A stretch of DNA of 64,000 nt from Candidatus Poribacteria bacterium (GCA_965215265.1 OZ244048.1:1440001-1504000), one strand, 5' to 3'. Shown: positions 15,865-39,882, counted from the stretch's first letter. Program-made: numbers and translations. Notes: generated by a model not told the origin, from the sequence alone.

Positions 15865-16800
15865 TCATTGGGTTAACAACTTCAGGAGTTCTGCTTTGGT
15901 TTCGGCATCTAAGGAGCGTAAATCTTCTGAACTCAGCCCAGCCAGTCGTTCTTCCGGTGTGATGCCCTGGAGCCGTTCTTCCGGTGTGATGCCCTGGAGC
16001 CGTTCTTCCGGTGTGATGCCTTGGAGCCGTTCTTCCAATGTCATGCTCTGCAGCTGTTCTTCCGGTGTGATGCCCTGGAGCCGTTCTTCTAGTGTCATTT
16101 TTTTGAGCAAGTCCGGGCCCATGACATCAATAATCCGCCGGAGCTGTTTATCGTATAAATTCTCTCTTTTTGCCATTTTGAAGACCTCCATTGTGATTTC
16201 TGGCGCTACCCGCGCCGCATAGGAGAGGTAAGCCAGATTATCCTCGCCGATGAGCTGCTCGACAAACTGGTAAAACTTCCGTTTGGACGAGGCAAAGAGC
16301 AGCAGGGGGTAATTTTTCGCCACCAGTTCCAATTCATTACACACAAATAGGTTGACAGGCAATAAGTCCGTGCTTTGATAATGCCCGATACCTACGGAGT
16401 CCCACTTCACATCAGATGGGCAGCGGCTCAACACGTTTCTGGGTTGACGCGCGGAGACGATTGTCACCGTCATGTCAGCTGCCGAGAGTTTCTGCTCGGC
16501 CAGGTAGAGGTGGCTGCGCCCACGAATGAGGTGGTATCCGTCTCGTGTGAGAGCATCGGCTTTGCCTTTGAATTCAATCTGATTGTAGCGGCGGAAATAG
16601 TTGAAAGCGGTTTGCGTCTGAACTCTCTCCCGCTGTTGAGCGGTTTCCAAGACGAGCAGCGCATCGATGGTGCGTGGGAGCCGGCTCACCTCCACTTGTG
16701 TTTGGATAGGGATGGCGAGTTGCCCGAAGTTCACTGTCAAAACTTCTTTGAAGACAGGGTCAAGAAAATTGCGTTCGCTTGTTGGGTTATCAGTCGCCAT
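15865..16800 (-). CDS. Hypothetical protein, PD-(D/E)xK-like N-terminus with C-terminal EERLQGITP repeats
   Basis: 'RTIDALL...IEFKG' nuclease-like motif; 9-aa repeats near the C-terminus. Confidence 0.65.
   Translation of the reverse strand: MATDNPTSERNFLDPVFKEVLTVNFGQLAIPIQTQVEVSRLPRTIDALLVLETAQQRERVQTQTAFNYFRRYNQIEFKGKADALTRDGYHLIRGRSHLYLAEQKLSAADMTVTIVSARQPRNVLSRCPSDVKWDSVGIGHYQSTDLLPVNLFVCNELELVAKNYPLLLFASSKRKFYQFVEQLIGEDNLAYLSYAARVAPEITMEVFKMAKRENLYDKQLRRIIDVMGPDLLKKMTLEERLQGITPEEQLQSMTLEERLQGITPEERLQGITPEERLQGITPEERLAGLSSEDLRSLDAETKAELLKLLTQ
15943..16095. repeat. 27-bp tandem repeat (~5-6 imperfect units) encoding EERLQGITP
   Basis: Unit AGCCGTTCTTCCGGTGTGATGCCCTGG visibly repeated. 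Confidence 0.9.
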
Positions 16801-23249: not shown

Positions 23250-26200
23250 ATGCCAATATCGTTATCGAGAGGCTTTTCATTTCAGGCGAGCAGTAAAGAC
23301 ACCATACGGATTAACCGGTGCATCGTTTCAATCTCGTTATCGAGTGGCTTTTCATTTCAGTTCAGCACGTTCCTCTTTACACACACCACATTTACGTTTC
23401 AATCTCGTTATCGAGTGGCTTTTCATTTCAGGTTTTGTGCATTGTATGCATGAATTGACTCTTCGACAGTGTTTCAATCTCGTTATCGAGTGGCTTTTCA
23501 TTTCAGGCTCATGATAATCCTCCTATCATGCCGCGGGCCTTGTCTGCAGTTTCAATCTCGTTATCGAGTGGCTTTTCATTTCAGGTAATTCTAAAGGAGA
23601 ATTATTATGACGTTCTATGTGTTTCAATCTCGTTATCGAGTGGCTTTTCATTTCAGGCTGGACAGCAACCGTGGAAGGTGTCGCCAACACGACACTAGTT
23701 TCAATCTCGTTATCGAGTGGCTTTTCATTTCAGGGCGGTTTTTCATAACCGCCGGCACCTATTATTGACTGTTTCAATCTCGTTATCGAGTGGCTTTTCA
23801 TTTCAGGTGCGGTATTCAAAGTCTTCTGGAGTTAAGATACGTGTGTTTCAATCTCGTTATCGAGTGGCTTTTCATTTCAGGGCTAATAATTTCGTAATCG
23901 GGGGGTTGCGTGGTCGGCTTCGTTTCAATCTCGTTATCGAGTGGCTTTTCATTTCAGGGAAATCCGTCCGGGTGTATATCAAGCATCATATGAGTTTCAA
24001 TCTCGTTATCGAGTGGCTTTTCATTTCAGGTGAAAAAATTGCAGAGATTATGAAAATGAATCGCTTAAGTTTCAATCTCGTTATCGAGTGGCTTTTCATT
24101 TCAGGTTCCATAAATGCTTATGACCCTCTCTTTTCCGAATTAAGATTGTTTCAATCTCGTTATCGAGTGGCTTTTCATTTCAGGGTCAAATTCGCTTTTA
24201 TGCTTAAATAAGTGTGATAAAGTTTCAATCTCGTTATCGAGTGGCTTTTCATTTCAGGAACAGAGTATAAGTCCCTTGGCTGCATCGCCACGATGTTTCA
24301 ATCTCGTTATCGAGTGGCTTTTCATTTCAGGGCAAAAAGGCAGTTGTGCTGCGATTTGCTTGAAGCTGGGTTTCAATCTCGTTATCGAGTGGCTTTTCAT
24401 TTCAGGCTGGTGATTCTCAACGAATTTGATGTCTTCCAATAGGTTTCAATCTCGTTATCGAGTGGCTTTTCATTTCAGGAATTCAAATCTCGCTACATTG
24501 TATCATTGCGTCATGTTTCAATCTCGTTATCGAGTGGCTTTTCATTTCAGGGCCGGACTGTTTTCAAATACATTTTCATTGACAGAGTTTCAATCTCGTT
24601 ATCGAGTGGCTTTTCATTTCAGGTCTATTGGGCGGATGCTGACAATTTTATCATTCATGTTTCAATCTCGTTATCGAGTGGCTTTTCATTTCAGGAGATG
24701 GACATGAACGTGAACATCAACGCACTTTTAGAAAGTTTCAATCTCGTTATCGAGTGGCTTTTCATTTCAGGAACCTTGTTTTGAAAAGAGAAAGGGGGGT
24801 ATGATTTCATGTTTCAATCTCGTTATCGAGTGGCTTTTCATTTCAGGATTGAGAATGAAAGTGTATTTTTCATTAAGTTTAGTGAGTTTCAATCTCGTTA
24901 TCGAGTGGCTTTTCATTTCAGGAGAAAATACGAGATTCAAAATTCACTAACAAAACTGTTTCAATCTCGTTATCGAGTGGCTTTTCATTTCAGGTAAATG
25001 TCTCGAAGATTACCATGTCTGTCAAAAGAGTCAGGTTTCAATCTCGTTATCGAGTGGCTTTTCATTTCAGGTACAAACCTCGCAGACAGACATCTGCTGA
25101 AAGTATTAGGTTTCAATCTCGTTATCGAGTGGCTTTTCATTTCAGGCTATGCGGTTGGACAATCTGTCAGTAGCATGCATACAGAGGGTTTCAATCTCGT
25201 TATCGAGTGGCTTTTCATTTCAGGTTCCAGTTCGGGGGTGCTGACGGCAGACATTGAATTCGGGGCGTTTCAATCTCGTTATCGAGTGGCTTTTCATTTC
25301 AGGTTTTTTTAGCCTCAGTCTCCTCGCCCAAGCCACTCGCAGTTTCAATCTCGTTATCGAGTGGCTTTTCATTTCAGGGTCTGGCACGGGGTGGGTGGAA
25401 AATTCTTCTTATGACAGTTTCAATCTCGTTATCGAGTGGCTTTTCATTTCAGGTGATAAACCAATATGGTAGCCTCGCCCCAATTGCCCCCGTTTCAATC
25501 TCGTTATCGAGTGGCTTTTCATTTCAGGTTTTTCGCGGCAACGGCACGCTCTAGTGTCAGTGTGTTTCAATCTCGTTATCGAGTGGCTTTTCATTTCAGG
25601 ACAAGGGCAAGGTGGGCATACATGCTGGCGGTGAGTTTCAATCTCGTTATCGAGTGGCTTTTCATTTCAGGTGTACGCACAACCAAGACAGAAGAAGACA
25701 ACTACTACAACGTTTCAATCTCGTTATCGAGTGGCTTTTCATTTCAGGGTACGCTCTATGCAGTCTTTTGTGGAGGAGGTTAAACGTTTCAATCTCGTTA
25801 TCGAGTGGCTTTTCATTTCAGGTTCAACCCATAATCAACCAAGCATGCTGCAGCAAGTTGCTGCGTTTCAATCTCGTTATCGAGTGGCTTTTCATTTCAG
25901 GGTAGGTGCGAATTACGTTGAGACAGGTTTGGCTTATCTTGCGTTTCAATCTCGTTATCGAGTGGCTTTTCATTTCAGGATACGTCAGCGTCTCTATTGA
26001 ATGATTGACTGTGTCGTGTTTCAATCTCGTTATCGAGTGGCTTTTCATTTCAGGGGAAATGCGGCGGCGGTTGCATGAAGAGCAACTGGCATATGTTTCA
26101 ATCTCGTTATCGAGTGGCTTTTCATTTCAGGATAAATTTGACTTTTACGACAAAAGGTGGTATAATTATGTTTCAATCTCGTTATCGAGTGGCTTTTCAT

Positions 26201-28072
26201 TTCAGGTCTATTTTACTGCAGGCTTCATCTCTGTTTAATCGTATGTTTCAATCTCGTTATCGAGTGGCTTTTCATTTCAGGCAGGGTTGAAGTGCATCAA
26301 GGACGAATTCGAAACACTTGTTTCAATCTCGTTATCGAGTGGCTTTTCATTTCAGGCACCGATTCATATCCCCCCCAGAATCCACAGACGTAGCGTTTCA
26401 ATCTCGTTATCGAGTGGCTTTTCATTTCAGGAGATTTCAGAAAAGATATTAGATGCCGCCGTCATAGCTGTTTCAATCTCGTTATCGAGTGGCTTTTCAT
26501 TTCAGGTTTGATTTTGAATTAGAGAACAAACCTGAGGACATGGTTTCAATCTCGTTATCGAGTGGCTTTTCATTTCAGGATTTTAGACGGCGCAGTGTCA
26601 GACGCGCTTAGCAGTGTTTCAATCTCGTTATCGAGTGGCTTTTCATTTCAGGCATGATTCATGCACAAATGCTAGAAAACACAGTGAGTTTCAATCTCGT
26701 TATCGAGTGGCTTTTCATTTCAGGCGGCGGCGTTATCCTCATTGGACTTTTACACTCAGTTAGTTTCAATCTCGTTATCGAGTGGCTTTTCATTTCAGGG
26801 CTCAGTTCGGTTTTCATACGCGAAACAGGTATCGGGTTTCAATCTCGTTATCGAGTGGCTTTTCATTTCAGGCAACTTGCATTTTTCTATAAAATGCCTT
26901 CTGTTATAATTAGTTTCAATCTCGTTATCGAGTGGCTTTTCATTTCAGGCCATCTCTACCATCATGGCGGTATATTTTTCGAGATGAGTTTCAATCTCGT
27001 TATCGAGTGGCTTTTCATTTCAGGACAACGTGTCTTTGAAAACACCGTCCGTGCCACTGAATCCAGGTTTCAATCTCGTTATCGAGTGGCTTTTCATTTC
27101 AGGTACCATGTTTTTTGTTTACCTTTTTTCTAATGTATTATGTTTCAATCTCGTTATCGAGTGGCTTTTCATTTCAGGGGCCAGCGGCAGGATTGACATT
27201 GGGGGTTGGTTATTCATGTTTCAATCTCGTTATCGAGTGGCTTTTCATTTCAGGTTGATTTTATGTTGGTGGACAACGTCATTGTTATTGTTTCAATCTC
27301 GTTATCGAGTGGCTTTTCATTTCAGGTCCATGACGTAGGTGGTGCTGCGGGGTGTTCTGTCTTGTTTCAATCTCGTTATCGAGTGGCTTTTCATTTCAGG
27401 TCCCTTGGTGCCGTCCGGTGTTGGGCGGCACCTCGGGTTTCAATCTCGTTATCGAGTGGCTTTTCATTTCAGGTCTGTTAACGTCTGCCAGTCGTACAAA
27501 AACCTTTGACAAGTTTCAATCTCGTTATCGAGTGGCTTTTCATTTCAGGCCATTGCTTAACACCTCCAACATAGTTCTTTCTGTAATGTTTCAATCTCGT
27601 TATCGAGTGGCTTTTCATTTCAGGCTCGAAACGCTTTAGAAAGCGAATTTGACGCTAATTTGTTTCAATCTCGTTATCGAGTGGCTTTTCATTTCAGGTA
27701 TCTACAAGCACACAACCTGGACAAACAAGTGCAACGACGTTTCAATCTCGTTATCGAGTGGCTTTTCATTTCAGTTACAGGCCGCCATTGAGGCAGTTGC
27801 TTACAAGCAAGTTTCAATCTCGTTATCGAGTGGCTTTTCATTTCAGGCAGTGAAAGAATTGAAAACAGTCCGTAGAAGTCTGAAGTTTCAATCTCGTTAT
27901 CGAGTGGCTTTTCATTTCAGGTTCTAAAATTTCGGGAGGTACATGAATATTATCATAACCGTTTCAATCTCGTTATCGAGTGGCTTTTCATTTCAGGTAT
28001 TCAGACGCTTCTCTACCTCAAGCCCCTCAGAAGTCGTTTCAATCTCGTTATCGAGTGGCTTTTCATTTCAGG
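23250..28072 (-). CRISPR. CRISPR array: 64 intact 37-bp repeats (23325-28072) plus a degenerate terminal repeat (23250-23286); spacers 34-42 nt
   Basis: Plus-strand repeat GTTTCAATCTCGTTATCGAGTGGCTTTTCATTTCAGG. The minus strand ends in CTCG-ATAA-CGAG hairpin + ATTGAAAC handle. Leader lies next to cas2 and the degenerate copy is at the far end. Repeats counted by hand. Confidence 0.99.
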
Positions 28073-28298
28073 TCCGCCCGCCGGAGCTCACACTACGTCT
28101 TATTGCAATCGCAACATTTCTGTCAGTGTCTAATTTTGAAGTGATTGCACGCACTACTGTCACACATGGGTGCGTCATAAAGTAGATAGACATAAGACTC
28201 CAGCCACTTTCTGCCAGGGTGCAGGAAATTTTGGTCTCCTTCCGCTGACAGATTTTCTCCTTAGACTCTATTTTACACTATATATGATAATTTGTCAA
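28073..28298 (-). promoter_or_regulatory. CRISPR leader and putative array promoter
   Basis: TTGACA-N17-TAAAAT (28298-28270) overlaps the last cas2 codons; inverted motifs TCTGTCAGTG (28119-28128) and CGCTGACAGA (28243-28252). Confidence 0.75.
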
Positions 28299-28545
28299 GG
28301 CCTTTTTTCACGCCGATCCGTTTTATCTGTTTTTCACAAGTTGTACAGAGATGATAAAACGTGAGGCTATCTTCTGTGGTGTCGATTGTGTTCTGCAGAC
28401 GGTGTTGTAGACGTAGGAAAGCACGGCGATCGGTGTTGCATTCAAAGACACTGTATTGGATGCGGGTGCCGAAATCCTGAAGGATTTTGGCGACGCGAAT
28501 CCGGCGGTTGTTATCGGTAATATCATAGGCGACAGTATAATGCAT
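28273..28545 (-). CDS. cas2: CRISPR-associated endoribonuclease Cas2
   Basis: VAYDITD, RIQYSVFEC; GGAGG SD; 90 aa. Confidence 0.96.
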   Translation of the reverse strand: MHYTVAYDITDNNRRIRVAKILQDFGTRIQYSVFECNTDRRAFLRLQHRLQNTIDTTEDSLTFYHLCTTCEKQIKRIGVKKGLDKLSYIV

Positions 28546-28590
28546 GTGTGTTACCTCCATAGGCATTGCGGATTTAATCATTAGATTGGT

Positions 28591-30222
28591 TCACCGCGTG
28601 GTGAGTGGGGTATAGTCAGATATTTCACCTGTTAGGTATTTCGCTAGCAAGCGGACTTGTAATTCCATAGCGCGCCGAAAAGTGAGTTTATATTTGAATG
28701 CCGGATGGGTAATGGTCTCGTTTTTCCGGGTTTCATAAGCTGCGTAAAAAGTTTTCCGTGCACGTTCTTTGAGATACCAGCCTCCGTGTGCTTGTGTAAA
28801 GTCGTTTGGCGTGATCTGCTTGGTATTTATCAGTGTGATGACAACAGAGTCTGCGATAATCGGACGAAATTCTTCCATGAGGTCTAGCGCGAGACACGGT
28901 TTTCCGTATTTCAATTGGTGAAAGAAACCGATGTAGGGGTCTAGTCCAACGATCTGAATTGCAGACATCACATCTGCTGTTAGTAGCGAGTAGGCGAAGC
29001 TCAACAAAGCGTTGGTAGGATCAGCAGGAGGTCTGCGGCTCCGGTGTTGGAAATCGAACCCGAGTTCGGATTTGAGCATAAAGGGGAAGGATCGGAAGTA
29101 CGCGGCGGTGGCATTGCCTTCAATACCAAGGAGCTGCGTCAGATTTAGAGCATTCGCAACCCGTTTTTGCATGAGCTTGATTGATTTTATGCTTTCCAGC
29201 AAAGGGGCCAGGTCTGTTTCGATTTTGTTTCGCCATTTGCGTCGTTGGAGCATCAGTCGCATGTTTGCCAGCTTACCGTGAATGAAGGCTTTAGCAAGCG
29301 TTAACGCGTGTTCATTTATATTCGCGATTCTGTATTGTGCGGAGCGCAGAAGTGAATTCCGTGAGACTTGTGGTGTCAATGCGCCGTGATAACGCCCGTA
29401 TTTTGAGAGGAAGACCACGGGGATGCCATCGTGCAAAAGTGTCTGCATTGCGGGTGTAGTCAAATTGACGTTTCCGGCGATGACGACTTGTCCGAGATGA
29501 ATGAGTGGGATATCGCGTAGGACCTGGTTCTCTCGTGTGACGAGTATGCGTTGTCCGGTCTTTTTTATGGCGCATCCTTGTTCGTCAACGTAGAGGACGT
29601 TGTCAATGCCGAGTGCGGGTTTTATCCGCTTCGGGCGTTCATCCAATTTCTGTAGATAGGCGACCTCATCTGGCAGGCAAATAGGGCGTATGCTACAGCC
29701 GTTGCATCGGTTATCGTGAATCGGTTTTGGAATCTGCCTGGATTGAAGGAGAGCACGTGCCTGTGTGAGATATTGATGTGTTGTCTGGCGCAGTTCTGCA
29801 TCAAAGGGGACCTTGCGCCGCCGTTTGGAACCGATATAAAAGATGTAGCCGTGCGGGATGGATAGCCCGGTTTTTTCCTCCAAGAGTAGTCCCTGTAAGC
29901 AGAGTTGAACCTGATCGTTGATCCAATTTCCGATTCCTGCTTTTTTGAATTCAATTGGATAAGGGATTCCGTCTTTTTCCTCTACGAGATCTGTGTAACC
30001 GGAGACACCGAGTGCTTCTGAGGCGAGGTAAAGTCGTCGCGAGATGGTTTTATCGCCTTTACGGCGTGCGTGTACCTCTGTGTGGACATTCTCATGCTTA
30101 ATTGTGCCTTCTTCTATGTGGTGGTTGATGACTTGATGTCCTTCAATTGATTCATAATAGAATCGCCGTGGACAAAAAACGTAGGTGTTTATTTGTGAGA
30201 GTGGAATGTAGGTTTCAGACAT
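28591..30222 (-). CDS. cas1: Cas4-Cas1 fusion protein
   Basis: N-terminal Cas4 (FCPRR, SGYTDLVE, IEFK, QLCLQ, RCNGCSIRPIC) fused to Cas1 (GIEGNA, NALLSFAY, GFFH, LALDLMEEFRPIIAD). Confidence 0.95.
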   Translation of the reverse strand: MSETYIPLSQINTYVFCPRRFYYESIEGHQVINHHIEEGTIKHENVHTEVHARRKGDKTISRRLYLASEALGVSGYTDLVEEKDGIPYPIEFKKAGIGNWINDQVQLCLQGLLLEEKTGLSIPHGYIFYIGSKRRRKVPFDAELRQTTHQYLTQARALLQSRQIPKPIHDNRCNGCSIRPICLPDEVAYLQKLDERPKRIKPALGIDNVLYVDEQGCAIKKTGQRILVTRENQVLRDIPLIHLGQVVIAGNVNLTTPAMQTLLHDGIPVVFLSKYGRYHGALTPQVSRNSLLRSAQYRIANINEHALTLAKAFIHGKLANMRLMLQRRKWRNKIETDLAPLLESIKSIKLMQKRVANALNLTQLLGIEGNATAAYFRSFPFMLKSELGFDFQHRSRRPPADPTNALLSFAYSLLTADVMSAIQIVGLDPYIGFFHQLKYGKPCLALDLMEEFRPIIADSVVITLINTKQITPNDFTQAHGGWYLKERARKTFYAAYETRKNETITHPAFKYKLTFRRAMELQVRLLAKYLTGEISDYTPLTTR

Positions 30223-31069
30223 GTTGATCTCCTTGCTTTAAAGGTATGCGTTTTGTTTGTCCCATGCCCATAGTGGTTTTGTAGCCGGTGCCGGAATAAA
30301 GGGCAAAATCAGCCAACCAGTTAGCGGTATAGAGCAGGTCGAGGTTGAGTTTATCGGTGGGTTCAAAGCGGCATGTGCAGGTACCGATCCATCCGATCAC
30401 GGTGTATGAGCCGAAATTATGGGCGCGTGTGCGGGTATGGGCTTCAGAGAGGCGTGCGTGTGCGGCAATGAAGTTTAAGAGTTGCCTTTCATCAATCTGC
30501 ATCGGCGCGAAAGCATTCCATTTTTTGACCCAGCTCCGGTAGCATCGGACTAAGTCGACTTGGGTATGCGTATATGTCTTTTGCCCACGGGGGGTGAGTG
30601 CGCGGAATGAAGTAGGTGAATAGAATTTGATTCGGAATTGAGTTTCAGGGAGTGCGGATTGTACAATTTGGGTGTAGGAGGCGTTTGCACTCCAGGTTTG
30701 TGCTTCAGTAGCGTGTGAGACCCACTGTTTAACCTGAAACGTTGCTTCTCCCAATCGGATGGGTGGCATGGTAAGTGCCAAAAATGCCTGCCCAAATTCT
30801 GCAAAGAGCGCGTCATCTAAGAAGGTGAATCGGAGTTTGCAGTCGGTGCCGGCTCGGAGATGGATTCGGTTGTTGTGCGACTTGCCTTTCGCCTGAAGTG
30901 GTGAGACGGTGAAAGGCTTTTGTGAGGTTTGTGCGTGCAGTGCTGTCGCCAATTCTGGATTCGTCTGCTTCAGAATTGAGAGGAATGCGGCGTGTGCGTG
31001 GTGTCCCATGGTGGGACGGAGTGCGGCACCGGTTTGTGGTATGAGGGAAAGTACTGTGCTGATAGGCAT
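30215..31069 (-). CDS. cas6: crRNA-processing endoribonuclease Cas6
   Basis: KPFTVSP, FYSPTSF, C-terminal G-loop YSGTGYKTTMGMG. Confidence 0.94.
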   Translation of the reverse strand: MPISTVLSLIPQTGAALRPTMGHHAHAAFLSILKQTNPELATALHAQTSQKPFTVSPLQAKGKSHNNRIHLRAGTDCKLRFTFLDDALFAEFGQAFLALTMPPIRLGEATFQVKQWVSHATEAQTWSANASYTQIVQSALPETQFRIKFYSPTSFRALTPRGQKTYTHTQVDLVRCYRSWVKKWNAFAPMQIDERQLLNFIAAHARLSEAHTRTRAHNFGSYTVIGWIGTCTCRFEPTDKLNLDLLYTANWLADFALYSGTGYKTTMGMGQTKRIPLKQGDQHV

Positions 31070-31100
31070 GGGGGCTTCTCCTTATGTTGTTGTTTCGCTT
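31067..31100. repeat. Direct repeat copy 1 (downstream boundary of the second effector cassette)
   Basis: CATGGGGGCTTCTCCTTATGTTGTTGTTTCGCTT; matches 37765-37793 except for two short slippage indels. Confidence 0.85.
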
Positions 31101-31144
31101 TTTGTAAGTGCTTTGCGAGCGCGTATACAAGCGGCTCTCATTAA

Positions 31145-33031
31145 TCAAGACTCGAAGAGAGATAACTGTTCCCCACCTGTTGGTGCAGGCCTCGAAGATT
31201 TCGACTGTTTTTTCGATTTCGGTTCAAGTTCTTCCGGCGGCAGCTGTATTTCCTTCTCAGACGAAGATTTCTCCAAATCTTTCAAATAATGCAGCCATAT
31301 TTTTTTTGCGTCTCCATTTTCACGGGTTGTTTTGTAAATAAGATTTTGTCGGTACCCCTTAGTGCCGCCAGATTCAAACACTTTGGGAACTTCGACGTAC
31401 CCAACTTCTTCACAAAAATCAGTTTCAGGTACCTCAATAAAAAGTTCTTTAAAGTAGACAGCGCCGCCATAGTTAAGCGGAACGAACCTGAATTCCTCGT
31501 TATAGTTATCGTAATATCGCTGATAAACCTTAATATTCGAGTCAACCGTCTCGCCCTGCTGATTGGCGATACAACTTCGAATCGGCAGATTGATAGCATT
31601 TTCAGGCTGTTGCTTCGAGGATTCAGGAATCTTGGTCGTAAGGATAAGTGAGGGTTCAAAACTCCGCGTAACCACAAGGCCTCTATCGTGCAGCGGTTTG
31701 TTTTCAAGACGCGCTTCGTAGACGTACTCATACAGCATATCAAAAAGTACCTCTGCCCGATAGTCGGAATGCGGTTCGTACTGCATGATGTCAAGAATTT
31801 GATTTGGCTGAAACCTATCCGCTGTTTGCGTTTGTAGAAGGTTCAGGTAGGTTTCCTCTTCCTCACTAGAGATAACCGAGAGAAATGGACGGATCTTGTT
31901 TCCTACAACTACAATTTCAGCGTCTTGAATTTCTCCTTTGCGGTTGCACCTGCCTGCGCGTTGGATAAGCTGATCTGGGTTGCACAATTCCGTGAGCAGC
32001 AGATGCGCGTCAAGATCGCATCCGACCTCAATTGCACTTGTAGTGAAAAGCAGGTATCCGTCATCGTTTTTTTCACAATCCTTTAGTTTACGGTAGACGT
32101 TCTTGCGCCGTAGATTAGAAAGCCGCCCGTGGTAAAGAAAAATGTTGTCTCCACTGTACCGCTCTCTCATGTAGCGATAAACTGGAACAAGATCTTGAAC
32201 GGTTTCAATCATGACGATAATTCGCTTATCTGCTTCGTAGCGCTGTGAAACGCGTGCACAGATTTCGTTCTGTACCTTTTCTCCTGGTTCCACAGTAATA
32301 TGCTTAATCCGCTTATCAGGATATTGCCGGTTCTGCTTTTTCCGTTGCCAATTTTCCAATTTTAATTGATTATCGCTTGTGGTATAGTCAACGGTATCCA
32401 AGAAATTCAATTTTGCTTGGTATGTATCAGGCATTGTCGCTGTCATAACAACCATATCAAGATTTACTTTGTAAAGTGCCTTGATAAGACGTTCAAAGTT
32501 AACAAAGGCAACATTATCATAAGAGTGGGCTTCGTCAAAACAAAAGAGATTCCGTCGTTGACTGTGCTGGATGCGAAACGGGTAAATATAAGACTTTCTC
32601 GGTTCCCCAAATCCGAAAAAGCGGTACAGAAATTTGTCAAAAGTGGTAATGATGACATCGCCATCATAGAGATGCCTTTTTCCTCTTTCTAACATTTTTC
32701 CTTCTCTAAAGACAGTACGCGTTGATTGCGCGCCTGTATCAACGACAAGTGCATAAGAATTGTCTAAAACCGTTGACATTTGCTTAAGGTACTTTTGACA
32801 CCGGTCGATCTGGTCATCAACAAGACTCCGAGAAGGAAAAATAAGGAAAAGCCGCCGGCCTGACGTAAGGCTAGGGATAAGCACAGCCTCCGTTTTTCCG
32901 CTGCCTGTAGGTGCCTTAAGCAAAAGCGCGGGATTGGAATTTTCGGTAGCAATGTGCGTGAAAAGAGTTTCTTGCATGGGATTTGGATTGTGCTTTGCCA
33001 ATTTTTGGTATGCCGCTAATACGTTTTGCAT
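31145..33031 (-). CDS. cas3: Cas3' helicase (second copy, no HD domain)
   Basis: APTGSGKT, FDEAH, MTAT, YHGR, EVGCDLD, QRAGRCNR; AGGAGGTG SD. Confidence 0.92.
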   Translation of the reverse strand: MQNVLAAYQKLAKHNPNPMQETLFTHIATENSNPALLLKAPTGSGKTEAVLIPSLTSGRRLFLIFPSRSLVDDQIDRCQKYLKQMSTVLDNSYALVVDTGAQSTRTVFREGKMLERGKRHLYDGDVIITTFDKFLYRFFGFGEPRKSYIYPFRIQHSQRRNLFCFDEAHSYDNVAFVNFERLIKALYKVNLDMVVMTATMPDTYQAKLNFLDTVDYTTSDNQLKLENWQRKKQNRQYPDKRIKHITVEPGEKVQNEICARVSQRYEADKRIIVMIETVQDLVPVYRYMRERYSGDNIFLYHGRLSNLRRKNVYRKLKDCEKNDDGYLLFTTSAIEVGCDLDAHLLLTELCNPDQLIQRAGRCNRKGEIQDAEIVVVGNKIRPFLSVISSEEEETYLNLLQTQTADRFQPNQILDIMQYEPHSDYRAEVLFDMLYEYVYEARLENKPLHDRGLVVTRSFEPSLILTTKIPESSKQQPENAINLPIRSCIANQQGETVDSNIKVYQRYYDNYNEEFRFVPLNYGGAVYFKELFIEVPETDFCEEVGYVEVPKVFESGGTKGYRQNLIYKTTRENGDAKKIWLHYLKDLEKSSSEKEIQLPPEELEPKSKKQSKSSRPAPTGGEQLSLFES

Positions 33032-33807
33032 AAGATCACCTCCTTTCGCTGACATTCGGTATAGGTATGAGCCTTCACAATAATTTCACGGAGTAGTCTC
33101 TGCCCTTCTGTAGGTTTGTCATTTTTCAGAGCGTTCCGTATTTTATTTTTGTGTTTCTCAGGTACGTTGAATTCATAATACTCAAGTGCTAGGCAGATCT
33201 CTTGGGGCCCAAAAGGATAGGGGCTCACTTCAATTGTCTTATCGTTACGCCGCCGTGAGTGGAAATCCATAAAGACACGCGGTTGTACACCATCTGTAAA
33301 GGCATAAGTTTCAAGTTCAGCCTCGATCTGATCGCACATCTCTAAAATGTAGAGATCTATGGGAAAATTTTCTACTTCAGTCTGAGAAAACTGTTTCAAG
33401 GTGCTGAGCTGCGCTTGTGCCTTGGCAATACCTTCAACCGAAAATTCGTGATGTAACCGGATAAGCTGCTCAACGTACCGATTTACGTCGAAAACTCTGA
33501 ACCGATGTCCTGCAAAAGAGTAGCCAAGTGATTTGATTGCGTCATGCTTCGAGCTGCGATAGGTTACGCGAAACGTTTCCGGCTTCGCGGCATCATGTTT
33601 ACAGGCAGCACGTATCAGGAATTCTCTGGTTATGTGACAGTTTCGGTTAAAGTTTGAATAAAAATCTCGTCGAAAATTTTCCACTAAGCAGACGACGTTT
33701 GCAACGTGGCTCTCTAAAGTGAGAACAGTCACCTTCTTTACATCCGGTCCGCTTTCCGGTTCAAAAAAAACGCGTCCAACATGAACGAAATCTATGTTAT
33801 GAGCCAC
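33016..33807 (-). CDS. Stand-alone HD nuclease (Cas3'')
   Basis: TLESH, ACKHDAAK, FAGHRF, LIRLHH, EMCDQ: ordered HD motifs of Cas3''. Overlaps cas3'; GGAGG SD before GTG. Confidence 0.8.
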   Translation of the reverse strand: MAHNIDFVHVGRVFFEPESGPDVKKVTVLTLESHVANVVCLVENFRRDFYSNFNRNCHITREFLIRAACKHDAAKPETFRVTYRSSKHDAIKSLGYSFAGHRFRVFDVNRYVEQLIRLHHEFSVEGIAKAQAQLSTLKQFSQTEVENFPIDLYILEMCDQIEAELETYAFTDGVQPRVFMDFHSRRRNDKTIEVSPYPFGPQEICLALEYYEFNVPEKHKNKIRNALKNDKPTEGQRLLREIIVKAHTYTECQRKEVILCKTY

Positions 33808-33808
33808 T

Positions 33809-34582
33809 TTATCTGCCTCCTTGTAATTCATCAATGAACGGTTTCGGAATGTGCACGTTCCCATCTGTATAGTAATCTAGTTCAATCTCGGTATGAACCC
33901 TTCCGGCAACAAAAGGAATGAACCCGTTAATAGCACTCGGTTGCGGTTCCTCGAGATTTGTGCTTGGAGATGCCTGCCATTTCCAGTCATAGCGATAGAG
34001 TGGAAACGCTTCGCACGGTTTCCCTACGAGTTGCTTTCCCGGTAGCAATGTATCGGGTAAGGCAGTTTGGCGTTCCAATTTGAGTTGAATTGGCGGTGAA
34101 ATCTTATCGACAAAGGCGTATCCCTCTTTTCCAATTTTACACCCAAAGTTTTCAATACTTTCCAATTGCTTTAGGAGGTGGTTGTCTTCTGAAACGACAT
34201 ACCCGATGAGTTCCTCTGTAAAGAGGTACTCCCACGTATGTAGTTGATAAACCTGTTTTGAGTTTTGATAACGATGAATTCGTGAGAAAGCGTTATGCTT
34301 AAAATCTCTGATGCCTTGCCGTTTTGTTGTATGAATGCGATGTGTACCACGCTTTGGATATGCCCCGAGCGTGCAGAGCTGCGGCGGCAAGGTGTAGTAA
34401 TTAGGATTTTTGACGGCGGTTTCGGGCAAATGCCCGGCCTCCAGCAGCTTAAGGCGGCGAAGGAAGCCGGACATCGTTGTGGGCGGCAGAAACGGATATG
34501 TACTGATATGCAGGATGGAGGATGGCATTCTACGAAATGTCAGGCCTGATGTCGGTTTAATCGTCAGCTGGAGCATCCACAT
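33809..34582 (-). CDS. cas5: Divergent Cas5-like RAMP protein
   Basis: N-terminal 'TYPFLPPTTMSGFLRRL' (Cas5 T-x-P-x-P-P-x-S/T-T-x-x-G motif) and G-loop 'GCKIGKEGY'; lies downstream of the Cas7-like gene. Confidence 0.75.
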   Translation of the reverse strand: MWMLQLTIKPTSGLTFRRMPSSILHISTYPFLPPTTMSGFLRRLKLLEAGHLPETAVKNPNYYTLPPQLCTLGAYPKRGTHRIHTTKRQGIRDFKHNAFSRIHRYQNSKQVYQLHTWEYLFTEELIGYVVSEDNHLLKQLESIENFGCKIGKEGYAFVDKISPPIQLKLERQTALPDTLLPGKQLVGKPCEAFPLYRYDWKWQASPSTNLEEPQPSAINGFIPFVAGRVHTEIELDYYTDGNVHIPKPFIDELQGGR

Positions 34583-35540
34583 TTTCAAGCCCCTCCGTTT
34601 CAAACTGAACTAGATATTTGGACATTTTTGCAATAGCAGCATCGCCGATGTATCTATGAAAACTACCACGAACCAACCTATTAGCAGGTTGTTGCTCGTG
34701 CCCACCGATTGAAAAAGCGGCCTTTTTGAACTGGGCTTTTGCCTCGTCAACGTCTGTAATCGTTGGTGAAACGACCGGGCGTTTACCGAGGGGTGATAAA
34801 TATTTGTCAAAGACAATCCATGGTTCAGCAGCCTCGTTAACAAGCGGCGCGTCGTAGATTTTAACGCCTTTCGGATTTCCAGCGCCTAACCGTGCTAACG
34901 CGCCCATGAACGCGTAAGTCACTGCCGAAAATTCACTGTCTGTCATACTCAGACAGTGATTGTAGACCGGATAGAGTAGCCCCGGTTGGTTGTATTCCCG
35001 CTTGAAGGGCATCGGAGTCGGCGCTGCTCCTGGATCTTTCCTTATCATTGAAGGATGCATGGCGCGTTGTTTCTCCTCGGGGCCTAATGCCTGAATCGCG
35101 ACACCGCCGCTATGCGTCAAACGGCCAATCAACGTTGTTGCCGGACGTTTCTCAGTTTTTTTTGCATCATCAATTTCAACGTCAACTGCCGCCGGGATGA
35201 GCCCCCCAAAGACACGGCAGATTGGGCACTCTACCGTGCTACAGGTGTGAGGGATACCGCAGTTCCACTTATCACCCAGCAAACCGTTGCCGGTTGGTGC
35301 CCAAATTAGCACGCGCCGTTCAACTCCACGGCGTTTCGTTGGGGACAAGTAGCATTTTTCAACTTCAGTATCGTCCCCATTATTAGATGGGATGGTGACC
35401 GTTTCAACGATATTGACGTTGACCTGTGTCTCGTGTCCGAAGAAGAGCTCTTGGCCGCCTTCGAGAATTGCATAGATATCAAAATGGAATCGAGGGGTGT
35501 CGGCTTGGGTTCCTAACCCGGTTTTAACATGAGTTGCCAT
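34557..35540 (-). CDS. cas7: Divergent Cas7-like backbone subunit
   Basis: LSPTKRRGVERR, Zn-binding CGIPHTCSTVECPICRVFG, LIGRL, RLGAG; 327 aa; lies between the large subunit and cas5-like genes. Confidence 0.75.
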   Translation of the reverse strand: MATHVKTGLGTQADTPRFHFDIYAILEGGQELFFGHETQVNVNIVETVTIPSNNGDDTEVEKCYLSPTKRRGVERRVLIWAPTGNGLLGDKWNCGIPHTCSTVECPICRVFGGLIPAAVDVEIDDAKKTEKRPATTLIGRLTHSGGVAIQALGPEEKQRAMHPSMIRKDPGAAPTPMPFKREYNQPGLLYPVYNHCLSMTDSEFSAVTYAFMGALARLGAGNPKGVKIYDAPLVNEAAEPWIVFDKYLSPLGKRPVVSPTITDVDEAKAQFKKAAFSIGGHEQQPANRLVRGSFHRYIGDAAIAKMSKYLVQFETEGLENVDAPADD

Positions 35541-35556
35541 CTCGCTGATTCTCCTT

Positions 35557-36015
35557 TCAAGGTAGTTCGGGAAACTTTGCATAGAGGTTAAGCTTGAGTT
35601 GATAACATAACTTCCGCTGTTCAGCTTTGTTATACGTCGTAAATAACTCGGCATAAGCGTTCAGGATATCGTCAAAGTAAATAGACAACTGCTCTTGTCC
35701 TTTTTCATGAGGCTCCTCACGTTCAGAGAGATCCAACTTGAGTTTCTCTTTCAATAAGCGCTTTGCCTCGTCATAACAGAAATAGTTGTCGTCGTTGCGA
35801 AACATCTTGGCGCGGGTGCCACGGAGCGTTTCAGCAGCTTGATAATTAAAGAAACTGGGATTGACAACTTTCTCGATTAGTTTTTTAACTTCGCGTCGGA
35901 CTGTGTCAGAATCCTTCTCAGCTTCTCTGAGTTTCCTACGGACATAGTCACAATACGGATAAATCAACCCGGTGAGGGCAGCAACATCGCGATAAAGTGC
36001 TGCTTGTTTTGCCAT
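35557..36015 (-). CDS. Putative internally translated Cas11-like small subunit (152 aa)
   Basis: In-frame AAAGGAG-ACAAACTC-ATG GCA AAA (MAKQAALYRDVA) inside the large-subunit gene. Confidence 0.65.
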   Translation of the reverse strand: MAKQAALYRDVAALTGLIYPYCDYVRRKLREAEKDSDTVRREVKKLIEKVVNPSFFNYQAAETLRGTRAKMFRNDDNYFCYDEAKRLLKEKLKLDLSEREEPHEKGQEQLSIYFDDILNAYAELFTTYNKAEQRKLCYQLKLNLYAKFPELP

Positions 36016-37767
36016 GAGTTTGTCTCCTTTTGAGGATGGTTCAAGTGAGGATGGTTCAAGTAAGGTACAGTGTTTTTCACGGAGTTCTTCAAGACTTCGT
36101 TTTTCACTGTAGAACCAATCTTGGATGGAATTTGCTTCGTTGGGTTCTGCGGTTATCAATGTGTAAATTGCAGAGATAACTTCGTTTCGCTGAATAAGCC
36201 GGATGGCTTGTCCTAGCCGAATATTAACTTTCTTATTCACGATGAGGGTAGGTGAAAAACTGTCCTTGAGATGGCTGAGCCAGACTAGGTGTCGTGTTTT
36301 CAACGGAATCTCCGATTCGCCGGCGAAAAGCGTAAACTGCATTTTTTCAATCGCCTCAGTTGGCAGAGTTTGCGCAACCCGCCAGAGGGCATACTGCACT
36401 TGCCCAATTTTCTCCGATACTGCGGTTAATCCACCTTGTCCACTTACAAAGTCTCGACAGTTAACCAGTAGATACCGCCCAGCTATCAGATTTAGTTCCC
36501 CGAGGGTGAGCATCCGGACATATTTCTCCGTAGATAACCACTGGTTGTCTTCACTGTTAGGTGACAACCGAACGATAATCGTGCCGGATGTCAATTTAAT
36601 CGGACAGACGAAGGCAATAGCTAAGCAATCTAGGCAAATAGGCGGTTGAGCTTGACTGCTTCCCGATTGTAACCTTTGCGACGAAGCAGAGAATACGAAT
36701 CGATTTGCCTCGCCTTTAAACCTTTTATCTTTCGAGGGTAATTGCCTGCCACAACTGTAGCAGTGATTTTTAGCGTTATCTCCAGCAATCCGCACTTGTC
36801 TTTGATATATTTCATCAATGGGTTCAAGTGGACAAGTTAAGGTATGCTCTGGTTCATTTAAAATATCAACAATTTTGTTCTCAATTTTTCCACCCTTTGC
36901 CCGGGGTTTGACTGTTCCATAAGAAAATTGGCATCTACCTATTCGAGTGAATTGCCGTGAGAGTCTAGCCGCTTCATCAAAACAGTGATTGTTGGCAGGT
37001 AATTCCCTGCGCAATCCGGTTAAAATTTGTTTCAGTTCTTCTCGATTGGTTTTCAAAGCAGCCTTTTTCTCTTCATCAGTTTTAGCTTTTTTATAGTTGT
37101 CCGGGTACAGGACAACTCTTTCATGGAGGGTTGCTATATAGAACGCAGCTTGCCAAAGTTTCATCGCTTCAGTTACCGATGGAAATTGAACGTAGCCAAA
37201 CCCTCTATTTGTCAGTTTCATGCTATTCACGAACAGCGTAAAAGACTTATACAACTCATCTTTTGAGTAAGCGAACTGAACGAACTGCTGCCATTCATCC
37301 TCAAGTTGAAAGTCTATCTTCGGAATAAACAGGGATACCGTCAGTTTATTTTCTGAAAGATAGGTGGCACACCTTTCCTGCTGTAAGAATGCCATAAACC
37401 TTTCAATTAGTGAGTCGTAAGCGATTTTGATTTGTGCCTCTTGCGGAAGTACAGCGCGAGAATAATTATAAATTTTCCCAATTGGCTCCTCCTTAAAAAG
37501 GATTGTGTCTTTCTGTTGAGAGAGCCAATTGATTGGGTTAGGTCCTCGTTTATCGTCCGGCGATGAGTGTCTGAGTAGCTGTTCAGCGTGTCGTAGGGTG
37601 CGCAAGGCATCCATATCGCCCCACCACTGTTTGAGGAGCTGATATTCGTCGGAACGATAATAGTAGACAAATGCCTCGAGCTCGTCGTAAGGTTGATTTG
37701 TCTTCATCGCAGCAGCGAAATGCGCCGCCAAGATCTTAGGCTTGTGTTGTGGCTTAATATTAACCAT
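35557..37767 (-). CDS. Divergent Cas8/Cas10d-like large subunit (no HD domain) with C-terminal Cas11-like region
   Basis: 736 aa; CYSCG...ICLDC zinc finger like the CSLC...ICKLC of Cas10d; helical C-terminus; first gene of a large-cas7-cas5-HD-cas3 series. Confidence 0.7.
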   Translation of the reverse strand: MVNIKPQHKPKILAAHFAAAMKTNQPYDELEAFVYYYRSDEYQLLKQWWGDMDALRTLRHAEQLLRHSSPDDKRGPNPINWLSQQKDTILFKEEPIGKIYNYSRAVLPQEAQIKIAYDSLIERFMAFLQQERCATYLSENKLTVSLFIPKIDFQLEDEWQQFVQFAYSKDELYKSFTLFVNSMKLTNRGFGYVQFPSVTEAMKLWQAAFYIATLHERVVLYPDNYKKAKTDEEKKAALKTNREELKQILTGLRRELPANNHCFDEAARLSRQFTRIGRCQFSYGTVKPRAKGGKIENKIVDILNEPEHTLTCPLEPIDEIYQRQVRIAGDNAKNHCYSCGRQLPSKDKRFKGEANRFVFSASSQRLQSGSSQAQPPICLDCLAIAFVCPIKLTSGTIIVRLSPNSEDNQWLSTEKYVRMLTLGELNLIAGRYLLVNCRDFVSGQGGLTAVSEKIGQVQYALWRVAQTLPTEAIEKMQFTLFAGESEIPLKTRHLVWLSHLKDSFSPTLIVNKKVNIRLGQAIRLIQRNEVISAIYTLITAEPNEANSIQDWFYSEKRSLEELREKHCTLLEPSSLEPSSKGDKLMAKQAALYRDVAALTGLIYPYCDYVRRKLREAEKDSDTVRREVKKLIEKVVNPSFFNYQAAETLRGTRAKMFRNDDNYFCYDEAKRLLKEKLKLDLSEREEPHEKGQEQLSIYFDDILNAYAELFTTYNKAEQRKLCYQLKLNLYAKFPELP

Positions 37768-37793
37768 GGGCTTCTCCTTATGTTGTTTCGCTT
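37765..37793. repeat. Direct repeat copy 2 (cas5d 3' end plus RBS; upstream boundary of the cassette)
   Basis: CATGGGCTTCTCCTTATGTTGTTTCGCTT. Confidence 0.85.
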
Positions 37794-38437
37794 GCAAAGT
37801 AAGCCATTGATGTGGGGAATTGGACATCATCAAATTCAATGTATTCTCCGGTGAACCTTGCATTTTGCAGCAGGCTGACCGGGGGCATCGAAATTAAATC
37901 GTATAGCTCTGGCAGCACAGAGAGGTCTATTGGATTCAAGAGGTGAGTGCATGTGAAGGTGCCGTGTTTAGGTGTTAAGTGATGCTTGACAGCCTCAACT
38001 TCAATGTGTGCTTTGCTCATCCACAATCCCAACCTTATCCATTTGGGGAGTTTATAGGGTAGGTTGCCGAAAAGATAAAAGACGAACTCGCTTTCTTGAG
38101 CAAGTTCCTTGGTTTTTCCATAGGACGGTTTATTGGTACGATTCGGTGCAGCAAAAGCTCGGTGCCGGTTATCGGCGAATTTAAACGTGTTAATTACATA
38201 ATCACATTGGATAGGATTGGCAGGCGTAATGTAAACGCCTGCCTCGTTAATGGGTTTGAGATCATCCTGATACGTTGGTACACTATCAGCACAATAGTAG
38301 GGCTTTTGGATGAATCCAAGTGCGTACGTCAAGGCCCAGTTATGGATGACCTTTTCGGTTTCGTAGAGCCGTCCCATTTCACGCGTCGCATAATAGAGCG
38401 AATCATGTAAAGTGAGTCGGCATTTTGCAATTTGCAT
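37778..38437 (-). CDS. csc1: Type I-D Cas5 (Csc1)
   Basis: LTLHDSLYYATREMGRLYETEKVIHNWALTYALG, LPKWIRLGLWMSKA, LLNPID, ISMPPVSL. Confidence 0.95.
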   Translation of the reverse strand: MQIAKCRLTLHDSLYYATREMGRLYETEKVIHNWALTYALGFIQKPYYCADSVPTYQDDLKPINEAGVYITPANPIQCDYVINTFKFADNRHRAFAAPNRTNKPSYGKTKELAQESEFVFYLFGNLPYKLPKWIRLGLWMSKAHIEVEAVKHHLTPKHGTFTCTHLLNPIDLSVLPELYDLISMPPVSLLQNARFTGEYIEFDDVQFPTSMAYFASETT

Positions 38438-38453
38438 GGATGCCTCCTACGGT

Positions 38454-39470
38454 TTACCTTTTCTTGGCTTGCTTTTGCTTTTGAATCACCCGTTGGGAAT
38501 ATTCAGAGGTTTCTCTGTTAGCTTCCTCAAGAAAAGTTCGAAGTTTAACCTCATCAGTTGTCACAGTTTTGACACAGTTAATCAAGGTTTGAAGGTTATC
38601 ACCGTGGATATGCTGAAAAATAACGTCGTCATCGTCGAGCAGAGGTGGTATCACATTTTCAGTAGTTGCAATAACCGTCCCCGGATCCAACGGCGTTTTT
38701 TCTAATTTTCTGGCCTCGTCGAGTGCGTCGTAAATAGCCTGCGTTAGTTTGAGATTGGAGAAGATTTCTCCGTCGGCAAAAACAATTCCGACAATATGAT
38801 TTGCGAGTCGCCCTGTGCGTGTTGTCTGCGCACCGTAGCGTTTGGTTCTTAACAAATTATTAAGAACGTACGCGAAACTGTTGAGGGTTACGTCCTTAAT
38901 TGTAAGGATGGACGGAAAGTAGACTTGTGGGACGATATGGTCTTGTTCGCCAAAGCTCGATCGTACTTGCCCGTGCTGGCTCATATTTCCCTTTTCAAAC
39001 AACGCGTTAAACGAAAATTGCTGATGTGATTCATCGTAACCGCCGATGGAATAAGCAGTATCGACATAGACTTTTGACTTCTCCGCGCCAGAATCCCCGA
39101 TAGCGAATCCGTAGTATACACAATCGGGACAACTCTGGCAGAAGTGCTCATTGTAATCACAGTATTTCGGTTCTGCTTTGTCATCGTGATTTTGCGTAAT
39201 CCCGGTCCGTCGGAGGAGTTCCCTGCCGGTTAGCCGTTCGGGTGAAGTCTGTTTGCGTTTAAACATGGCGATGCGAATCAAGGATTCTGTCTGCTGCAAA
39301 CCGCGCTTGACATTGGCGATGTTGAGTGTGCCATCTGTCTGGAAGACAGGATATGATTCGGTTTCTCTAATCAGTAAGATGTGTGCATATCGCCCTTCGG
39401 GTGCCTTAGGTACTGTATCCAAAAAACTGTTTTCATGGACGATATCTTGGGGGATCTCAATTATTGACAT
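38454..39470 (-). CDS. csc2: Type I-D Cas7 (Csc2)
   Basis: RETESYPVFQTDG, FKRKQTSPERLTGRELLR, CPDCVYYGFAIGDSG, RYGAQTTRTG. Confidence 0.95.
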   Translation of the reverse strand: MSIIEIPQDIVHENSFLDTVPKAPEGRYAHILLIRETESYPVFQTDGTLNIANVKRGLQQTESLIRIAMFKRKQTSPERLTGRELLRRTGITQNHDDKAEPKYCDYNEHFCQSCPDCVYYGFAIGDSGAEKSKVYVDTAYSIGGYDESHQQFSFNALFEKGNMSQHGQVRSSFGEQDHIVPQVYFPSILTIKDVTLNSFAYVLNNLLRTKRYGAQTTRTGRLANHIVGIVFADGEIFSNLKLTQAIYDALDEARKLEKTPLDPGTVIATTENVIPPLLDDDDVIFQHIHGDNLQTLINCVKTVTTDEVKLRTFLEEANRETSEYSQRVIQKQKQAKKR

Positions 39471-39882
39471 CAGTAGTCTCCTCATTTTTGTCGTTTTGGA
39501 ATTGTCTCCAATTTGCTTGATACCATGCGTTGATACCAGCGTTTAGACGGTTGCGTCGGCTGCGTAAGATTGCCCGTTGCCCGTCGCATTGATTCATAAA
39601 GACTTGTTGATAGAAATAGTCAACGAGCGTTTGAATTGCCTCTGGTTCATCTCGTCGGTGCAAGCGTGCATATCCTTGTGCACGACTACTTCTGACCCGT
39701 TGCATTAGGTTGTGAATCTCACCCCGAACCTGCCAATTGAGGTCAATCGGATCTATGGCTGATTCGCTGTTGATAATAACATCTTCTACCAAGCTGATTA
39801 CTTTCAGGACACTATTGGGAGCGAAAGAATCAGGTCCGTAAAACTTGAAGCACAGTTGTGCAATGCCTTCAATCAGACTCAT
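39457..39882 (-). CDS. cas11d: Putative internally translated Cas11d (141 aa)
   Basis: In-frame GGAGG-TAACAAA-ATG AGT CTG near the cas10d 3' end; internal Cas11 translation is known for type I-D. Confidence 0.75.
   Translation of the reverse strand: MSLIEGIAQLCFKFYGPDSFAPNSVLKVISLVEDVIINSESAIDPIDLNWQVRGEIHNLMQRVRSSRAQGYARLHRRDEPEAIQTLVDYFYQQVFMNQCDGQRAILRSRRNRLNAGINAWYQANWRQFQNDKNEETTDVNN

Follow-up and report, generated by a model that had tools for sequence, protein, structure and literature searches.

Gene content of the locus

We analyzed a composite CRISPR-Cas locus (CRISPR, short palindromic repeats that are clustered and regularly interspaced) in a 64,000-nucleotide (nt) stretch of DNA from a sponge-symbiont Candidatus Poribacteria (GCA_965215265.1 OZ244048.1:1440001-1504000), referred to below as the window. 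At this locus, a block of type I-B-like effector genes lies between csc1 and cas6 of a type I-D system and is flanked by two copies of a short direct repeat, termed here J1 and J2. The genome to which the window belongs (label G000) comprises 4,833,177 bases and gave one match for cas8b and one for csc1. Alongside two full effector modules, the locus has a single cas6, a single adaptation module and a single array (Table 1). Both modules are full length relative to their homologues, and Cas10d of the window aligns with its relatives over its full length. The promoter motif of the window also precedes both I-B and I-D loci of relatives. For the fused Cas4-Cas1, the best PADLOC profile is the type I-G Cas1g, despite the I-D/I-B character of the locus.

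Table 1. Features of the composite locus, listed in gene orientation from the regulator to the array (window positions; E, expectation value).
Feature	Position	Strand	Evidence or remarks
WYL-domain regulator, front end of the locus	45165-46181	-	PADLOC WYL, E 4.7e-28
Shared-type promoter and I-D 5' untranslated region (UTR)	44571-44720	-	-10 box TATAAT(TAAG) at 44680-44671
cas3' helicase, I-D module	42495-44570	-	TIGR03158 cas3_cyano, E 1.4e-77, 261 bits (cut-off 69.1)
cas10d (csc3)	39457-42513	-	TIGR03174, E 1e-121, 407.8 bits (cut-off 60)
csc2 (cas7d)	38454-39485	-	TIGR03157, E 1.4e-80; PF18320, E 4.1e-114
csc1 (cas5d)	37778-38437	-	TIGR03159, E 1.1e-57
Repeat copy J1	37765-37793	-	last csc1 codons, TAA stop, Shine-Dalgarno AAGGAG, spacer, cas8b ATG
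cas8b, large subunit of the I-B-like module, 736 residues	35557-37767	-	PADLOC Cas8b, E 1.9e-120
cas7b	34557-35654	-	PADLOC Cas7b, E 9.1e-105
cas5b	33809-34603	-	PADLOC Cas5b, E 1.3e-79
HD-fold protein, 282 residues, probable Cas3'' nuclease	33016-33864	-	true start may be the second Met
cas3' helicase, I-B-like module, 636 residues, no HD domain	31145-33055	-	TIGR01587 cas3_core, E 1.2e-46, 159.5 bits (cut-off 102)
44-nt stretch between cas3' stop and J2	31101-31144	-	
Repeat copy J2	31067-31100	-	non-coding csc1-type tail, TAA, Shine-Dalgarno, spacer, cas6 ATG
cas6, sole copy in the locus	30215-31069	-	TIGR01877, E 2.3e-18; PF19308, PF10040
Fused cas4-cas1	28591-30222	-	PADLOC Cas1g, E 1.2e-152; Cas4d, E 2.8e-66
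cas2	28273-28581	-	PADLOC Cas2d, E 1.2e-29
CRISPR array	23324-28088	-	at least 62 exact 37-nt repeats ending (gene orientation) in ATTGAAAC

Judged by its predicted products, the block cas8b-cas7b-cas5b-HD(cas3'')-cas3' is a complete-looking second interference module. The PADLOC profiles identified the Cas8b, Cas7 and Cas5 that characterize type I-B, and TIGR01587 identified the helicase, which also matches the Pfam models DEAD and Cas3-like_C_2. It should be kept in mind that none of the Pfam or NCBIfam models matches Cas8b, Cas7b or Cas5b of the block, and that the PADLOC profiles alone recognize these three proteins. Each module is placed in its tree as the sister of clades from the same bacterial family, and neither, therefore, looks like a distant import.

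The 282-residue protein encoded between cas5b and cas3' retains invariant H53, H90-D91, H120, H138-H139, D178 and H202 in 16 homologues. Its structure model has a mean predicted local distance difference test score (pLDDT) of 82, and its best fold matches all belong to the HD superfamily, the top Z score being 9.8 (HD domains of PPX/GppA proteins), with a Z score of 6.5 for the Cas3-HD structure 8wth. A Foldseek search of the PDB was blank at a threshold of E <= 0.001, nothing relevant came from phmmer and profile searches of the same database, and the Pfam search returned only DUF3891 at E 0.12. Overall, there is moderate support for this protein being a separate Cas3'' nuclease.

The direct repeat and its junctions

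Read on the minus strand, J1 is AAGCGAAACAACATAAGGAGAAGCCCATG (37793-37765) and J2 is AAGCGAAACAACAACATAAGGAGAAGCCCCCATG (31100-31067). In a gapped alignment, the two copies differ solely by an ACA indel and a CC indel, both of which are additional letters in J2. The exact core, with no gaps allowed, is 20 nt long and is found at 31072-31091 and at 37768-37787. The core 15-mer matches the window twice, as compared with 0 matches expected from 100 shuffles, while the core 20-mer, searched with up to two mismatches, has exactly two sites in the whole genome, these being J1 and J2. The 12-mer AAGGAGAAGCCC occurs three times. Upstream of AAGCG, the similarity between the copies is not significant, as 91% of 2000 shuffles score as high, and what was duplicated thus comprises 26 nt and the ATG, namely the csc1 tail, the stop codon, the Shine-Dalgarno sequence and the spacer. 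These results agree to the letter with the repeat reported in the initial annotation, including its coordinates and two indels, as well as with the size of about 6.7 kb given there for the inserted block. A 29-mer preceding many unrelated genes, a possibility raised in the same annotation, is not what the genome-wide search with the core found.

The csc1 gene at J1 is full length and terminates in ..GCAAGCGAAACAACATAA; the Shine-Dalgarno sequence, the spacer and the cas8b ATG come next. This ATG is the native start of cas8b, as homologues begin with the same MVNI. At the other end of the block, J2 sits in a 75-nt spacer between the stop of cas3' and cas6, and this spacer keeps a csc1-type tail, ..ACAACATAA, that overlaps the Shine-Dalgarno sequence. 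The first 14 nt after the cas3' stop (31144-31131) can be lined up in register with the I-B-type cas3'-cas6 junction but have a mutated Shine-Dalgarno sequence. When the entire 44-nt stretch was compared with the 5' ends of cas6 genes, no significant match was found, 84% of 300 shuffles scoring as high. The spacer before cas6 thus described looks like a csc1-type tail placed behind a decayed I-B-type cas3'-cas6 junction. The signature before cas6 of the window, ..ACAACATAAGGAGA, is that of I-D loci, whereas I-B loci read ..TTGATTAAGGAGA. The cas6-proximal junction is therefore of I-D descent, with the I-B block placed ahead of it, an anatomy that agrees with the block having been inserted between csc1 and cas6 and the target having been duplicated. 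Promoter and terminator scans of the window gave background levels (30 as compared with 27.7 expected, and 17 as compared with 19.5, respectively), with nothing notable at the junctions.

Related loci and rarity of the tandem

Plain I-D loci from 18 related genomes present the order WYL, cas3', cas10d, csc2, csc1, cas6, cas4/1, cas2. That cas6 directly follows csc1 in the canonical I-D order, as had been assumed when the window was first annotated, holds for 16 of these 18 loci but not for the window, where 6.7 kb separate the two genes. Plain I-B loci (19 loci) present the order WYL, cas8b, cas7b, cas5b, HD, cas3', cas6, cas4/1, cas2, and in none of the 19 does csc1 lie upstream of cas8b. Among 159 genomes of the order, cas8b of the block's kind was found in 27 and csc1 in 66. 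Adjacency of csc1 and cas8b is seen in the window genome only (1/27 cas8b-bearing genomes), no second tandem locus being present in the 26 other cas8b-bearing genomes of the order. Loci taken from species genomes likewise contain no tandem (0/17). In a metagenome collection, a 24-mer spanning the Shine-Dalgarno sequence and the start of cas8b gave 0 matches, and a scan with the Cas8b protein gave 0 relatives.

Several side observations were made in these relatives. Two genomes, G081 and G083, carry both module types 80-90 kb apart on the same contig. Their I-D modules (L048:3451-10196 in G081 and L049 in G083) come without cas6, adaptation genes or an array, and their csc1 ends in ..TAAGGAGG, after which unrelated DNA follows; their I-B-type locus, 80-90 kb away, is complete and includes both cas6 and an array. 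This arrangement hints that an I-D module may depend on the Cas6 and the CRISPR RNAs (crRNAs) of another locus. In L043 (11024-12550), and also in L030 and L046, short G/A-rich tandem repeats with GGAAG-like units take up 0.7-1.5 kb between cas6 and cas4-cas1. In L040 (11106-11414, genome G140), cas4-cas1 is reduced to its last ~100 residues and the array is short, with 4-8 repeats, so that the adaptation module appears to be in decay although the I-D locus is intact in other respects.

Exchange of effector modules between relatives

The relatives suggest that the two module types replace one another. When the loci were labeled as I-B or I-D on the Cas6 tree (36 rows), the labels change 13 times, as compared with a mean of 12.2 for shuffled labels, and at least 7 of these changes are forced by well-supported branches. 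On the Cas4-Cas1 tree there are 10-11 changes, at least 7 of them forced, and on the tree of the WYL regulators there are 6 changes, at least 4-5 of them forced. On all three trees, the labels are no more clustered than shuffled ones. For each of four different CRISPR repeats of 37 nt, an I-B and an I-D locus of different genomes carry identical copies, and all four end in the same letters as the repeat of the window.

The boundaries of such replacement can be read from the pair G147 (I-B) and G149 (I-D), in which 82-86% DNA homology extends through WYL and the promoter to GGTAT(A/T)ATTA, i.e., the -10 box, is lost over the effector genes and is back exactly at TAAGGAGACCCACCCATG of cas6. The motif TAAGGAG, in which the stop of the last effector gene overlaps the Shine-Dalgarno sequence of cas6, is found in 26 of 35 related loci (14/19 I-B and 12/16 I-D). 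The interleaved trees, the identical repeats and the boundaries of the G147/G149 pair together indicate that effector modules have been exchanged repeatedly between conserved front and back ends. As far as can be judged from sequence comparison, the I-D and I-B modules of Poribacteria are interchangeable cartridges on a common chassis that have been exchanged many times. The boundaries of the swaps would be the -10 box of the promoter and the stop/Shine-Dalgarno sequence TAAGGAGA before cas6, and the probable route is homologous recombination in the conserved flanks.

The WYL regulators, as a side observation, fall into two deeply split classes, ~60% and ~28% identical to that of the window (upstream regions of L022-L051). 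Both classes precede I-B as well as I-D loci, and L030 has both in tandem.

Assembly check and a strain variant

Seventeen runs from 11 studies contain at least part of the window stretch, and four of these (X5, X7, X11 and X12, all as contigs) were compared with it. In run X5, which comes from another study than the best holders, contigs bridge both J2 (30078-31221) and J1 (36297-38118) with 0 differences. The tandem is therefore not a mis-assembly of two loci, an outcome for which the initial annotation had allowed. Runs X11 and X12 yielded short fragments that are identical to the window.

Run X7 represents a different strain. Its 15,092-nt contig shows 101 substitutions over 29000-37779 (~98.8% identity) and is unlike the window from 37779 onward, this position being the middle of the csc1 stop codon, at the Shine-Dalgarno sequence before cas8b. 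In X7, the back end, J2 and the I-B block are present, and an I-D module is missing there. Read in gene orientation, the first 30 letters that differ hold stops in all three frames and are absent from the window and its genome at up to three mismatches. Their opening letters, TAATTAAG, are also found in the -10 region of the window, TATAATTAAG (44680-44671), and their closing letters, ATCAAAGA, which the Shine-Dalgarno sequence follows, in the native I-B leader of L029. A promoter-like sequence and a leader of the native I-B type thus stand immediately ahead of the I-B block in X7. The difference between the strains amounts to the I-D module and its UTR, ~6.9 kb (44670-37780), as opposed to ~22 nt in X7, and has the same two boundaries as the module swaps in relatives.

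The 40 differences between G000 and X7 listed for 29176-33745 include 24 synonymous ones and 0 in the 75-nt spacer. Both indels between the strains keep the frame (27 nt at 36032; TTC at 32941). The mostly synonymous differences and the in-frame indels argue that the genes are under constraint in both strains. As a side observation, the 27-nt deletion in X7 falls on a 15-nt tandem repeat inside cas8b (36031-36065, 2.3 copies), which therefore marks a slippage-prone spot of variable length in the large subunit.

Interpretation of the tandem

We consider the repeat to be the scar of host recombination that placed two alternative type I modules in tandem on shared front and back ends, a reading to which we assign a probability of roughly 0.7. 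In this scheme, the shared frame would consist of one front end (WYL and the promoter) and one back end (cas6, cas4-cas1, cas2 and the array), and one exchange would not have been clean, so that both cartridges stayed and the junction of csc1 stop and Shine-Dalgarno sequence was duplicated. As to function, one Cas6 would process one pre-crRNA, and Cascades of the Cas10d type and of the Cas8b/Cas3 type would load the same crRNAs.

This interpretation has some weaknesses that need to be considered. The trees were built in quick mode, with support from the Shimodaira-Hasegawa-like approximate likelihood ratio test (SH-aLRT) only. The likeness of the 14-nt remnant after cas3' to an I-B-type junction is positional and not significant by shuffling, and the source of the 30-nt filler, which makes up the rest of the 44-nt stretch, was not found in any fetched locus or in the window. 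The native-looking I-B leader of X7 does not exist in G000, and X7 is therefore no simple deletion derivative of the tandem; at the same time, the upstream flank of X7 is known from 30 letters, and the listed base differences end at 33745, short of its Shine-Dalgarno sequence and spacer. Finally, that both complexes would be active and load common crRNAs is drawn only from the identical repeats of relatives and the intact reading frames.

Two orders of events can lead to such a scar. We lean, by a small degree, toward the tandem form having arisen first. Illegitimate or template-switch recombination would have brought the I-B block, from its ATG to ~44 nt past the cas3' stop, into the csc1-cas6 junction of an I-D locus and duplicated 26 nt of the target. 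Subsequently, the lineage of X7 would have replaced the I-D module and its UTR by the native I-B leader of another strain, with the crossover at the Shine-Dalgarno sequence. Under this order, the Shine-Dalgarno sequence and spacer of cas8b equal those of cas6 because both derive from one duplication step.

The reverse order is possible but, in our opinion, the less probable of the two. Here, the starting form would have been an X7-like I-B locus, in which an earlier exchange had removed an I-D module but spared the csc1 tail before cas6. An I-D module with its UTR, donated by a sibling strain, would later have entered between the -10 box and the Shine-Dalgarno sequence of cas8b, with the left crossover in the homology of the promoters and the right crossover in the 12 nt AAGGAGAAGCCC that the csc1-cas6 junction of the donor shares with the cas8b leader. 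X7 lends itself well to this order, as its promoter-like letters, native-type leader and Shine-Dalgarno sequence stand before the same cas8b and the break lies exactly at the Shine-Dalgarno sequence; since X7 has the I-B block without the I-D module, the latter may be the later arrival, and the cas8b Shine-Dalgarno sequence may be its own. Clean swaps with such boundaries are, moreover, the common outcome in relatives, while tandems are rare, and CCC in J1 as compared with CCCCC in J2 fits two separate origins. On the other hand, the spacer AGCCC after the Shine-Dalgarno sequence of cas8b would have to match that of cas6 by chance, as other cas8b leaders differ, and a surviving I-D sibling with the csc1 tail AAGCGAAACAACA would be needed, a tail that is absent from the 16 other I-D junctions. 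Of what had been proposed for this locus, the duplication of the junction is borne out and an insertion between csc1 and cas6 is plausible; the proposal that cas8b borrowed the ribosome-binding site of cas6 is called into question by X7.

A stronger proposal, that the I-B block is a cassette moving in and out of the csc1-cas6 junction through recombination of the repeat copies, is improbable. It is true that a direct repeat flanks the block, that a deletion between J1 and J2 would recreate a normal csc1-cas6 junction and that the modules are exchangeable over evolutionary time. Yet the exact core is merely 20 nt across 6.7 kb. Efficient RecA recombination in Escherichia coli needs somewhat more than 20 nt, and loss between the copies should therefore be rare. 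No recombinase or transposase is encoded in the block, all five genes of which are cas genes, or among 10 flanking open reading frames (ORFs; 8/10 housekeeping, 2/10 without a Pfam match), in line with the earlier remark that no integrase or transposase is visible. The block does not differ from its surroundings in composition (GC content of 0.42-0.50 in the block and 0.44-0.50 in the flanks), and among the 25 listed of 33 pairs of inverted repeats, none joins one end of the block to the other. Likewise, no second block inside an I-D locus was found. Neither a csc1-cas6 deletion joint nor a circular form was seen in X5, X7, X11 and X12, bearing in mind that contigs drop rare variants, and the sole natural variant lacks the I-D module rather than the I-B block. 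The search for a deleted junction or a circle that had been suggested with the idea of an excisable plug-in cassette gave no sign of excision in these contigs. What remains of that idea is the interchangeability of the modules over evolution, while excision, mobility, a recombinase and a second occurrence were not seen. We conclude that the repeat is probably a recombination scar rather than the ends of a mobile element, and that the element is probably not self-mobile.

Selection for an optimal ribosome-binding or regulatory element, without duplication, could in principle make the two copies alike, and the prevalence of TAAGGAG directly before cas6 in related loci does imply conservation of a functional motif within the repeat. 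This is nonetheless very improbable as an account of the whole repeat, as the 13-14 nt upstream of the stop (AAGCGAAACAACA) have no Shine-Dalgarno role, are genome-specific and are common to both copies, and as the 20-mer is found nowhere else in the genome and the 12-mer AAGGAGAAGCCC has only three sites. Least probable, and largely refuted, is an assembly chimera of separate I-D and I-B loci joined at shared sequence, for although G081 and G083 do carry both module types at separate places, the X5 contigs cross both junctions without a difference, X7 crosses J2, the 20-nt shared core is shorter than the 31-letter words with which these runs were assembled, and the genome has one cas8b and one csc1.

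Implications

Our reading of the scar as the trace of module exchange leads to a broader proposal, which we offer tentatively: the chassis of Poribacteria, with its WYL-controlled promoter, would swap its I-D or I-B cartridge while keeping its spacers, and in the present locus, one pool of crRNAs would arm two DNA-destroying complexes that differ in mechanism, a state that was possibly selected. The dual-cartridge state could be kept by selection as, for example, insurance against anti-CRISPR proteins. If both modules work from one array, two type I subtypes would share Cas6, the repeat, the adaptation genes that select the protospacer adjacent motif (PAM), and the immune memory. If one module alone is active, the locus would still be a rare preserved intermediate of module shuffling. 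In the relatives, the effector appears to be replaceable while the memory is kept, with boundaries that are defined to the base. This would show concretely how effector modules are replaced, possibly via a tandem intermediate, suggest a route, open to testing, along which hosts could evade anti-CRISPRs with their spacers intact, and supply engineers with a ready-made scheme for exchangeable effector cartridges.

Other features of the window

Outside the locus, the window contains a 60-nt tandem repeat of three copies (99% matching) between ORFs at 54067-54248. A 27-nt tandem repeat of 5.3 copies at 15947-16089 lies inside a 318-residue ORF without a Pfam match, and this ORF is adjoined by one of 1612 residues (16986-21824).

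Comparison with known systems

Type I-D loci of the Synechocystis type (cas3', cas10d, csc2/cas7d, csc1/cas5d, cas6, cas4, cas1, cas2) share their four effector genes with the window, each of which exceeds the cut-off of its NCBIfam equivalog by a wide margin, and the order of the window up to csc1, as well as its back end, matches that of 16 related plain I-D loci. The window differs from these in the five-gene I-B-like module between csc1 and cas6 and in the fusion of cas4 and cas1. With type I-B modules, the window shares the PADLOC matches of Cas8b, Cas7b and Cas5b, the Cas3 helicase and the HD-fold protein, but has the probable HD nuclease and the helicase encoded by two genes. In addition, the usual I-B order has cas6 ahead of cas8b, whereas cas6 comes after cas3' in the window and in 19/19 plain relatives.

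The literature listings that we searched gave no report of an I-B/I-D tandem operon or of Poribacteria cas operons of such kind. Module shuffling as such has been described. According to passages of a review of type I-D, the genes of the effector module are shuffled while the adaptation module and/or cas6 are conserved (PMC10212523), and the 2025 classification, in the part that concerns type III, speaks of extensive module shuffling (PMC12669027). The window and its relatives differ from this in that modules of two type I subtypes have been exchanged, repeatedly, inside a single phylum, and the Poribacteria case adds identical repeats, boundaries known base by base (-10 box and cas6 Shine-Dalgarno sequence) and a preserved tandem. 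Composite loci are also known, for example, co-resident systems of types I and III that use one Cas6 and common arrays. The window resembles these in having one Cas6, one array and more than one effector complex, and differs in that its two effectors are both of the DNA-targeting type I and lie in one operon behind one promoter, with the sharing of crRNAs being presumed. What is new here, as compared with the systems above, is the repeated, base-resolved swapping between two type I subtypes with identical repeats, the preservation of a tandem and the polymorphism of strains for one of the cartridges.

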